Positions 41,601 to 44,600 of a DNA stretch of 64,000 nucleotides are shown here, one piece after another. The stretch comes from Escherichia coli (GTDB lineage Bacteria; Pseudomonadota; Gammaproteobacteria; Enterobacterales; Enterobacteriaceae): assembly GCF_002854065.1 (NCBI RefSeq), contig NZ_CP024147.1; one strand, written 5' to 3'. The position numbers were made by a program. Every line of letters starts with the position of its first letter. Positions within the stretch are counted from its first letter, which is position 1.

Positions 41601-44600
41601 TCATTTTTTTCGCTCTCACCGGCATCCCATTTGCCACATAATATCCCGCCGTGCTCCTCGGCAACGCATCCTTCCCGCGAATCATATCCGCTATTTTCTC
41701 GCCAATCATAATCGTCGTGGCGTTCAAATTGCCGGTGATAATTTGCGGCATAATTGACGCATCCACCACGCGCAGGCCTTCCAGCCCGTGTACGCGGCCT
41801 TCGCCGTCAACCACAGCCATCTCGTCATAACCCATTTTGCAGGTACCGCACGGATGAAACGCGGTTTCGGCGTGGTTACGCACGAACTCATCGAGCTGCT
41901 CATCCGTCTGGCATTCGACACCGGGGCTGATTTCGCGGCCACGATACTGATCCAGCGCCGGTTGATGCATGATCTCGCGGGTGATGCGAATTGCGTCGCG
42001 GAACTCCTGCCAGTCCTGCTCGTGCGACATGTAGTTAAACAGAATCGCCGGATGCTGGTGCGGGTCGCGGGATTTAATCCGCACATGCCCACGGCTTGGC
42101 GAGCGCATCGATCCGACGTGGCACTGGAAGCCGTGCTCTTTCACTGCATTCGAGCCGTTATAGTTAATCGCTACTGGCAGGAAATGGTACTGAATATTCG
42201 GCCACGCAAATTCCTCTCGGCTGCGAATAAATCCGCCTGCTTCAAAGTGGTTGCTGGCACCAACGCCGGTGCCGCCAAACAGCCACTCCGCACCGATTTT
42301 CGGCTGATTCCACCACTGCAGGGCAGGGTAGAGGGAAACCGGTTCTTTGCACTCATATTGCAGATACATCTCCAGATGATCCTGAAGATTTTCGCCGACG
42401 CCGGGTAATTCATGCACCAGCGGAATATCAAACTCCGCCAGCAGTTCAGCGCTACCCACGCCGGAACGTTGCAGGATCTGCGGAGAGGCGATCGCACCTG
42501 CACATAACAGCACCTCTTTATTCGCTGTCGCGCGGGTTGGAATGGTGCTGTCGCCTTCCTGCCACTCGACGCCCACCGCGCGTTTGCCGTCAAAAATGAT
42601 GTGATCGGTCATAGCGTGAGTACGAATGGTCAGGTTAGGGCGCGATTTGGCCTGATCGAGATAACCGCGCGCGGTACTGGCGCGACGGCCCTGCGGCGTG
42701 ACGGTGCGATCCATCGGGCCAAAACCTTCCTGCTGATAGCCGTTGAGATCGTCCGTGCGCGGGTAGCCCGCCTGCACGCCCGCTTCAATCATCGCTTCAA
42801 ACAGCGGATTGACGCCGGGTTTGGAGGTGGTGACGCTCACCGGGCCATCACCGCCGTGATAGTCGTTATCACCAATATCGCGCGTCTCGGCCTTGCGATA
42901 GTAGGGCAGGCAGTCGAGATAGCTCCAGTTCTCCAGGCCGGGTTCTTTCGCCCAGTTGTCGAGATCCAGCGCGTTGCCACGGATGTAGCACATGCCGTTG
43001 ATCAGCGACGATCCACCCAGGCCTTTACCGCGTCCGCACTCCATGCGGCGGTTATTCATAAACGGTTCAGGTTCCGTTTCATAGGCCCAGTTGTAGCGTT
43101 TACCCTGTAGCGGGAATGCCAGGGCAGCGGGCATCTGGGTGCGGAAGTCAAAGCGATAGTCCGGGCCGCCCGCTTCAAGCAGCAGCACGGAGGTATTCGG
43201 ATCTTCAGTCAGACGGGTAGCGAGAACGTTGCCGGCTGAGCCGGCACCAATAATGATGTAGTCAAATTGCAAATAAACCTCCTGGTTAGAATATGGACTG
43301 GAATTTAGCCATCTCAACCTGGATGGACTTCACCTGGGTGTAACTCTGGAGCGTCATCACGCCGTTCTCGCGACCAATGCCGGAGTGTTTGTAGCCGCCA
43401 ACGGGCATCTCTACCGGGGATTCGCCCCAGGTGTTGATCCAGCAAATACCCGCTTCCAGCTGATGAATGACGCGATGCGCGCGGTTCAGGTCCGCCGTCA
43501 CGATTCCCGCCGCCAGGCCGTAGTCGGTATCGTTAGCGCGGCGAATGACTTCGTCTTCCGACTCGTAGGTCAGAATGGACATCACTGGCCCGAAGATCTC
43601 TTCACGCACGATGGTCATATCGTCGCTGCAATCGGTGAACACAGTCGGCGCGACCCATGCGCCGTTATCGAGGCCATCGCCTTTCAGTACATCGCCGCCG
43701 CACAGTACGCGCGCGCCTTCCTCTTTGCCTTTGGCGATATAGCGCAGCACGTTATCGCGATGCGGGAAGCTGACCAGCGGGCCGAAGTTAGTTTGCGGAT
43801 CGAAAACGTCGCCCGCGCGAATGCGCTCAACGCGCGCCAGAATCTTTTGTTCAAATGCGGCTTTGCATTTCGCCGGAACGAAGACGCGGGTGCCATTGGT
43901 ACACACCTGACCGGAGCTGAAGAAGTTTGCCATCATGGCGATATCGGCGGCGAGATCGAGATCCGCATCATCGAAAACGATCAGCGGTGATTTACCGCCC
44001 AGTTCCATGGTCACTTCTTTCAGGGAAGAGGCCGCCGAGTTAGCCATCACTTTTTTGCCGCTGGCGACACCGCCGGTAAATGACACTTTGGCAATGCCCG
44101 GATGCTCGGTCAGATATTGCCCGGTCTCCGCGCCCACGCCCGGCAACACGTTAAATACGCCGTCCGGCAGGCCCGCTTCGCTGTAAATTTCAGCCAGCTT
44201 TAACGCGGTAAGCGGGGTGACTTCGCTCGGTTTGAAAATCATTGCGTTGCCTGCCGCCAGCGCCGGGGCGGATTTCCACAGGGCAATCTGGATCGGGTAG
44301 TTCCATGCGCCAATCCCCGCCACCACGCCCAGCGGTTCGCGGCGGGTATAAACAAATGACGTCTCACGCAACGGGATCTGGCTGCCTTCCAGCGCCGGGA
44401 TCAGCCCGGCGTAGTACTCCAGCACGTCCGCACCGGTAACGATATCGACGGTTGAGGTTTCCGAATATGCTTTTCCGGTGTCGAGGGTTTCCAGTTTTGC
44501 GAGTTCGTCATTGCGTTCACGCAGAATATCAACGGCCCGACGCAGAATACGCGAGCGTTCCATAGCGGTCATCGCCGCCCAGATTTTTTGCCCCTGTTGG

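Follow-up and report, generated by a model that had tools for sequence, protein, structure and literature searches.

Evidence that the betA gene of Escherichia coli starts at TTG, a start codon already recorded in reference annotations

In this study, we analyzed a stretch of 64,000 nucleotides from Escherichia coli (contig NZ_CP024147.1; referred to here as the window) and found that its choline dehydrogenase gene, betA, almost certainly has a TTG codon as its true and only significant start, with initiation at UUG led by the ribosome-binding site and with a TTG that was derived from ATG and kept within a clade. Reference annotations already carry this start, which is a known, ordinary feature of the gene. 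The first-pass annotation had placed betA initiation at the same codon, and this placement agrees with the K-12 and PGAP annotations, with the start codons of orthologs and with BetA protein profiles.

The coordinates of the features discussed here are shown in Table 1. When the minus strand is read 5' to 3', betB ends with CAG TCC ATA TTC TAA and is followed by CC, AGGAGG and TTTAT, after which betA opens with TTG CAA TTT GAC TAC ATC ATT ATT and continues with GGT GCC GGC TCA GCC GGC AAC. The 562-codon frame is closed by a TGA at 41586..41584 on the same strand. The nearest in-frame stop upstream of the betA TTG is a TGA at 43332, and the codons between the two are AGT CCA TCC AGG TTG AGA TGG CTA AAT TCC AGT CCA TAT TCT AAC CAG GAG GTT TAT. 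Neither ATG nor GTG could be found in frame between this TGA and the betA TTG, and a walk along the codons from the upstream stop to the FAD motif likewise bore out the earlier statement that no in-frame ATG occurs there, with GTG absent as well. In addition, the five codons that separate the betB stop from the TTG in this frame (AAC CAG GAG GTT TAT) include no ATT, ATC, ATA or CTG. An AGGAGG had been described as lying six bases upstream of the TTG; the hexamer is indeed present, and the 5-nt spacer makes the first T of the codon the sixth base past it, so that the stated distance is correct under one way of counting and one base too long under the other. Two points were absent from that description, namely that the gene lies on the minus strand and that a second in-frame TTG is present at 43317 inside betB.

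Table 1. Coordinates of the betA start site and of neighboring features in the window
Feature	Position	Strand	Basis or remark
betA initiation codon TTG	43272..43270	minus	sequence read; decoding of UUG as formyl-methionine inferred
Shine-Dalgarno sequence AGGAGGT (AGGAGG hexamer)	43277..43283 (43283..43278)	minus	sequence and predicted 16S rRNA pairing
TTTAT, 5-nt spacer between AGGAGG and TTG	43273..43277	minus	sequence
betB stop codon TAA, 13 nt upstream of the betA TTG	43288..43286	minus	sequence
betA coding sequence, 562 aa plus stop; choline dehydrogenase, GMC flavoprotein	41584..43272	minus	translation, profiles, PGAP annotation in CUWW06
GAGSAG, the GxGxxG FAD-binding motif (codons 9-14, N-terminal Rossmann fold)	43231..43248	minus	translation
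In-frame TTG inside betB, rejected rival start	43315..43317	minus	sequence
betB coding sequence, betaine-aldehyde dehydrogenase, ATG start, upstream of betA	43286..44758	minus	
betI coding sequence, repressor, first gene of betIBA	44772..45359	minus	stop codon 13 nt before the betB ATG

The ribosome-binding site was examined at the level of the whole window. AGGAGG occurs only 15 times on both strands of the 64 kb, and only 7 of these occurrences are followed 4-9 nt later by a start-type codon (ATG, GTG or TTG). As the hexamer is rare in the window and directly precedes the sole start candidate next to the conserved N-terminus, its presence before the betA TTG is not due to chance. AGGAGGT is predicted to pair with the 3' end of 16S rRNA over 7 bp (-11.5 kcal/mol), and no significant RNA structure could be detected in the betA start region (z = 0.26). 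The order AGGAGG, 5 nt and TTG is that of a UUG start, in which an in-frame TTG lies behind a Shine-Dalgarno sequence situated 4-9 nt upstream.

Protein profiles placed the N-terminus of the product at or next to this codon. The TIGR01810 betA equivalog scored 1030.9 bits against a cut-off of 732.1, with profile positions 1-532 of 532 aligned to residues 4-537, and in the full-length profile PRK02106 position 4 aligned at BetA residue 1. Both GMC domains of Pfam were recovered (GMC_oxred_N, PF00732, E = 7e-64; GMC_oxred_C, PF05199, E = 4e-41), with position 1 of the GMC_oxred_N profile falling at residue 3, and solved GMC structures aligned from residue 2-3, the closest being 9lq0, an oxygen-dependent choline dehydrogenase. 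The equivalog score, the two GMC domains with their GxGxxG motif and the betI-betB-betA operon divergent from betT all identify the protein as a member of the BetA family.

We also compared the start with curated annotations, as had been suggested, and found that betA of the curated K-12 MG1655 record (NC_000913.3; b0311, NP_414845.1, 556 aa, complement 325577..327247) begins with the same TTG. This codon is preceded in K-12 by CCAGGAGGTTTAT, identical to the window; the identical stretch takes in the end of betB, the ribosome-binding site, the TTG and the first codons of betA, and the order of genes in the operon is the same. UniProt entry P17445 presumably also has 556 residues, and the original paper on the bet sequence, by Lamark et al. 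in 1991, reportedly gave this length too. A length of 556 residues fits the TTG start alone in K-12. Two further genomes gave the same picture. Over 3.5 kb, CUWW06 matches the window with 100% identity, and its PGAP betA maps to 43272..41584 of the window. The O157:H7 strain TR01 shows 100% identity with the window across the 351-nt junction but diverges further downstream, and the betA start assigned by PGAP in TR01 is the same TTG codon. A side idea that ykgH might be unannotated in TR01 was dropped, as TR01 diverges from the window downstream.

Within the species, conservation of the start codon was found to be complete. The locus was carried by 5183 records, which came from 5179 of 5426 complete E. 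coli genomes. A native 39-mer comprising the ribosome-binding site, the TTG and eight codons matched every one of them (5180 at 100%), and since this query was designed so that each 28-base seed word spans the TTG, every matching record must carry that codon. The same 39-mer with ATG or GTG instead had no match among E. coli records. Similarly, an 82-mer around the betA start was 100% identical in 4954 of the 5183 records, and its ATG version found no exact match in E. coli records. Three divergent strains, which were inspected directly, retained AGGAGGTTTATTTG.

To extend the comparison to other species, we searched a single genome of each species for sequences that encode the conserved 13-residue motif of the BetA N-terminus and obtained at least 120 loci. 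Among the loci listed, at least 10 other genomes (eight named organisms and two metagenome assemblies) had TTG two codons before the Phe codon, as in the window. They comprised Enterobacter cloacae, E. asburiae, E. quasihormaechei, Enterobacter sp. BIGb0383 and an Enterobacter metagenome assembly, together with Lelliottia nimipressuralis, Pseudocitrobacter faecalis, Citrobacter sp. R56, Klebsiella oxytoca and one further metagenome assembly. At least 22 loci, for example those of Trabulsiella, Pluralibacter, Kosakonia, Pantoea, Cedecea, Tatumella and Xenorhabdus, had ATG at this same codon; in Trabulsiella the start reads TAACCCGGAGGTGCA ATG CAA TTT GAC. The remaining orthologs among the matches listed had ATG 3-6 codons before the Phe codon, except for one locus without a nearby start codon. 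The TTG thus occupies the position of the ATG in relatives, so that the proposed start matches that of its orthologs. The ATG-start proteins of Trabulsiella, Pluralibacter, Pantoea, Kosakonia and Xenorhabdus belong to the same family and share the N-terminal motif of the window protein, and in ATG-start Enterobacterales the start lies just after betB, as it does in the window. The BetA proteins of Pseudomonas and Halomonas, which likewise start at ATG and belong to the family with this N-terminal motif, have 2-4 extra residues compared with the window.

The ribosome-binding site was shared by the TTG group. All 10 TTG-start loci from other genomes had (A/G)GGAGGT 4-5 nt upstream of the TTG, with TTTAT, TTTTT or TCATTT as spacers, and a gap of 13 or 14 nt after betB. 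Among the 10 genomes in which this gap was measured (the window and nine others), K. oxytoca had 14 nt and the other nine had 13 nt. The predicted pairing energy was -11.5 kcal/mol in the window and in nine other TTG-start genomes, and the tenth gave the same value. The ribosome-binding sites predicted for ATG-start orthologs were mostly weaker (mean of -8.0 kcal/mol for 109 ATG orthologs among the matches listed), although the TTG group is a single clade and its stronger site therefore counts as one evolutionary event. Sub-optimal start codons in general tend to go with stronger ribosome-binding sites (PMC5622118). In a rough neighbor-joining tree (first 400 BetA residues, no bootstrap), the TTG-start sequences fell into one clade, with the ATG-start Trabulsiella nested inside it. 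The simplest reading of this tree would be one change from ATG to TTG and perhaps one reversion. Across 10 TTG-start genomes (the window and nine others), only 7 of 85 four-fold degenerate betA sites were invariant, whereas the ribosome-binding site and the TTG were invariant throughout. Judged by this comparison, the betA start region as a whole is under strong constraint, with conservation far above that of neutral sites.

Several other readings of the start have to be considered. It is very unlikely that translation begins at the in-frame TTG at 43317 inside betB, which would give a 577-aa protein with a 15-residue extension. It is the first possible start codon reached from the in-frame stop, a mechanical call lists it as the start of the open reading frame, and TTG is found at the equivalent position in most of the TTG-start relatives among the matches listed. 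However, its conservation is explained by the coding of betB, where the same bases fall within GTT GAG (Val-Glu), and it lacks a ribosome-binding site at a suitable spacing: a CCAGG abuts the codon and an AGGTGA ends approximately 15 nt upstream. When the 577-aa version was scanned with TIGR01810 and PRK02106, the 15 extra residues were matched by neither profile. With its 14-nt gap, K. oxytoca has a different relation between the two frames, and an in-frame stop there separates the equivalent of 43317 from betA. A stop also cuts off this position in the ATG-start relatives, where only 2-7 open codons are present upstream of the betA start. None of the three annotations (K-12, TR01 and CUWW06) uses 43317. 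The candidate was rejected on the basis of the ribosome-binding site, the profiles, the stop codon in K. oxytoca and the annotations. A start further downstream, at the GTG of codon 29 or the ATG of codon 47, appears to be extremely improbable. Both are start-type codons in frame; however, starting at either of them would delete the beta1-GxGxxG FAD motif (residues 3-14), which is covered by the GMC_oxred_N and BetA profiles, starting with their first positions, and by the GMC structures, and would thus yield a product without an FAD site. Finally, an error of sequencing or assembly at the first codon, with ATG as the real codon, had been named as the finding that would overturn the TTG start. 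The general rarity of TTG starts (approximately 3% of E. coli genes) is all that speaks for such an error, and the presence of TTG in 5183 of 5183 independent E. coli records, with ATG or GTG in none, and of the same TTG in at least 10 other genomes makes it practically inconceivable.

The position of betA in its operon suggests how the TTG start may be used. The genes are arranged as betI-betB-betA, divergent from betT, and betA is the last of them. AGGAGGT, 5 nt upstream of the TTG, would position the 30S subunit, and the initiator tRNA would then read UUG as formyl-methionine, giving Met-Gln-Phe-Asp-Tyr, as expected from what is generally known of decoding. Gln at position 2 makes a poor substrate for methionine aminopeptidase, and the first Met of BetA is therefore probably kept. 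The betA ribosome-binding site begins 2 nt after the TAA of betB, a short gap of the kind seen in coupled gene pairs. Ribosomes ending betB probably add to initiation at betA, and the layout of the 13-nt gap suggests that the translation of betA is probably coupled to that of betB. The junction between betI and betB (TAA-CC-GAGGAG-ACGTG-ATG, 13 nt) has the same layout, with ATG in the place of TTG, and the obvious difference between the two junctions is the identity of the start codon. Since UUG initiates less well than AUG, somewhat less BetA than BetB would most likely be made from the same mRNA, as suggested by the layout and by general data on start codons; the strength of the ribosome-binding site would make up for some of this loss. 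In the deep proteome of strain BW25113, BetA is made in the same order of magnitude as BetB and at a somewhat lower level, with approximately 91 copies per cell of BetA versus approximately 143 of BetB (PMC6544118, Table S3). The resulting ratio of approximately 0.6 derives from two BetA peptides, label-free quantification and uninduced cells (PMC6544118).

The TTG would have arisen from ATG within the Enterobacteriaceae and been kept in the betA lineage of Escherichia, Citrobacter, Klebsiella and Enterobacter. Why it was kept is a separate matter. We regard it as rather likely that it serves no purpose and is a slightly sub-optimal start that was fixed once, has been drifting since and is tolerated because betA is expressed at a low level, is used conditionally and has a strong ribosome-binding site. 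The nested position of Trabulsiella in the rough tree suggests that the two states interconvert, and its start shows that ATG is viable. Selection acting on start codons tends to be weak (PMC5622118). The first T of the TTG was invariant across the 10 genomes, which is only weakly surprising for a neutral site given that approximately 8% of four-fold sites are invariant and that two of the three possible changes at this base keep a start codon; the comparison of this T with four-fold degenerate sites gave a result too weak to claim selection for TTG specifically. On the other hand, no reversion to ATG or GTG was seen in 5179 E. coli genomes or in 10 other TTG genomes, and betB, with the same junction layout, uses ATG. 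It is also conceivable, if unlikely, that the weak start and the unusually strong ribosome-binding site together form a selected device for setting expression, which arose once in the betA lineage of Escherichia, Klebsiella, Enterobacter and Citrobacter. Such a device would hold the membrane-associated flavoprotein BetA below BetB, so that toxic betaine aldehyde does not build up. IF3 discriminates against non-AUG starts, and the output of BetA from such a device could respond to IF3 or to stress conditions. Sub-optimal start codons in general tend to go with stronger ribosome-binding sites (PMC5622118).

The distribution of betA starts across species corresponds to textbook start-codon turnover, mostly with ATG and with TTG plus a stronger ribosome-binding site in one clade of Enterobacteriaceae, and presents no new phenomenon. 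The K-12 record of 2006 listed only 81 UUG starts, and several newly found ones worked efficiently (PMC4909307). Those of E. coli ftsH and cdsA resemble betA in having a near-cognate start behind a ribosome-binding site, and starts of this type are reported to work and in some cases to be more efficient than an AUG nearby (PMC4909307, PMC11448367). They have been confirmed by reporter fusions, profiling or complementation, whereas a comparable experiment on betA was looked for and not found. We searched for a BetA entry in the supplements of tetracycline start-site profiling (PMC4909307) and of TRAINSPOTTER N-terminal proteomics (PMC13245402) and found none, and a literature search for published data that map the N-terminus of BetA directly or profile its start site was likewise negative. 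The TTG start of betA bears on correct annotation and on little beyond it. Gene callers that favor ATG or the longest open reading frame would place the start of betA wrongly, at 43317 or at a downstream codon, and for heterologous expression of E. coli betA it is worth knowing that the native start is TTG. With regard to the remainder of the protein, BetA of the window differs from that of K-12 in length (562 versus 556 aa), as a run of A7 in place of A6 near the 3' end shifts the stop codon and adds MSRDLN, and the two proteins also differ by a few amino-acid substitutions.

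The betI-betB and betB-betA junctions of the window share a common 13-nt layout, and the start codon is the main difference between them (see the table below). At the upstream junction, a GTG lies one codon 5' of the annotated ATG of betB, and because of this the mechanical ORF list places the betB start at 44761 rather than at 44758. The betB-betA junction was scored across the E. coli genome collection by matches to window 43100..43450; on this basis, it was wholly missing from 247 of the 5426 complete E. coli genomes. Ten of 5184 matches to the same interval were on plasmid-typed records.

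Features of the bet region and its downstream flank
Feature	Window coordinates	Strand	Remark
betI-betB junction	44756..44774	minus	TAA-CC-GAGGAG-ACGTG-ATG
betB-betA junction	43270..43288	minus	TAA-CC-AGGAGG-TTTAT-TTG
A7 run near betA 3' end	41604..41610	minus	A6 in K-12
betA stop	41586..41584	minus	
ykgH homologue	40719..41387	minus	intact, 222 aa; 97% identical to K-12 YkgH

Comparison with the window and with locus L114 revealed that betA of Trabulsiella odontotermitis has ATG CAA at the same start codon position. In the rough neighbour-joining tree of the first 400 BetA residues, Trabulsiella was nested in an otherwise all-TTG clade, adjoining K. oxytoca. This placement suggests either a reversion from TTG to ATG or a poorly resolved basal position. 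In E. coli ET734 (NZ_CP100922.1), the codons of the GAGSAG FAD-binding motif, aligned to window positions of about 43231..43248, were rearranged and were a net 5 bp shorter. The annotation of this strain lists betA as a pseudogene with a frameshift, although both the ribosome-binding site and the TTG are intact.

The 3' end of betA was found to be polymorphic in length. BetA in the window has 562 aa and ends in [11 protein letters not shown], because the A7 run shifts the frame relative to the A6 of K-12, whose 556-aa protein ends in VRAKK. Among the E. coli records, the 562-aa form was also present in TR01, AST85 and CUWW06, and the 556-aa form in 82.0312. Since the C-terminal tail varies in both sequence and length across every related species (554-562 aa), this A6/A7 polymorphism is probably neutral. 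The region downstream sets the window apart from O157:H7: ykgH lies 3' of betA in both K-12 and CUWW06, as it does in the window, whereas the O157:H7 strain TR01 differs here in that a frameshifted ipbA invertase pseudogene is annotated nearby.
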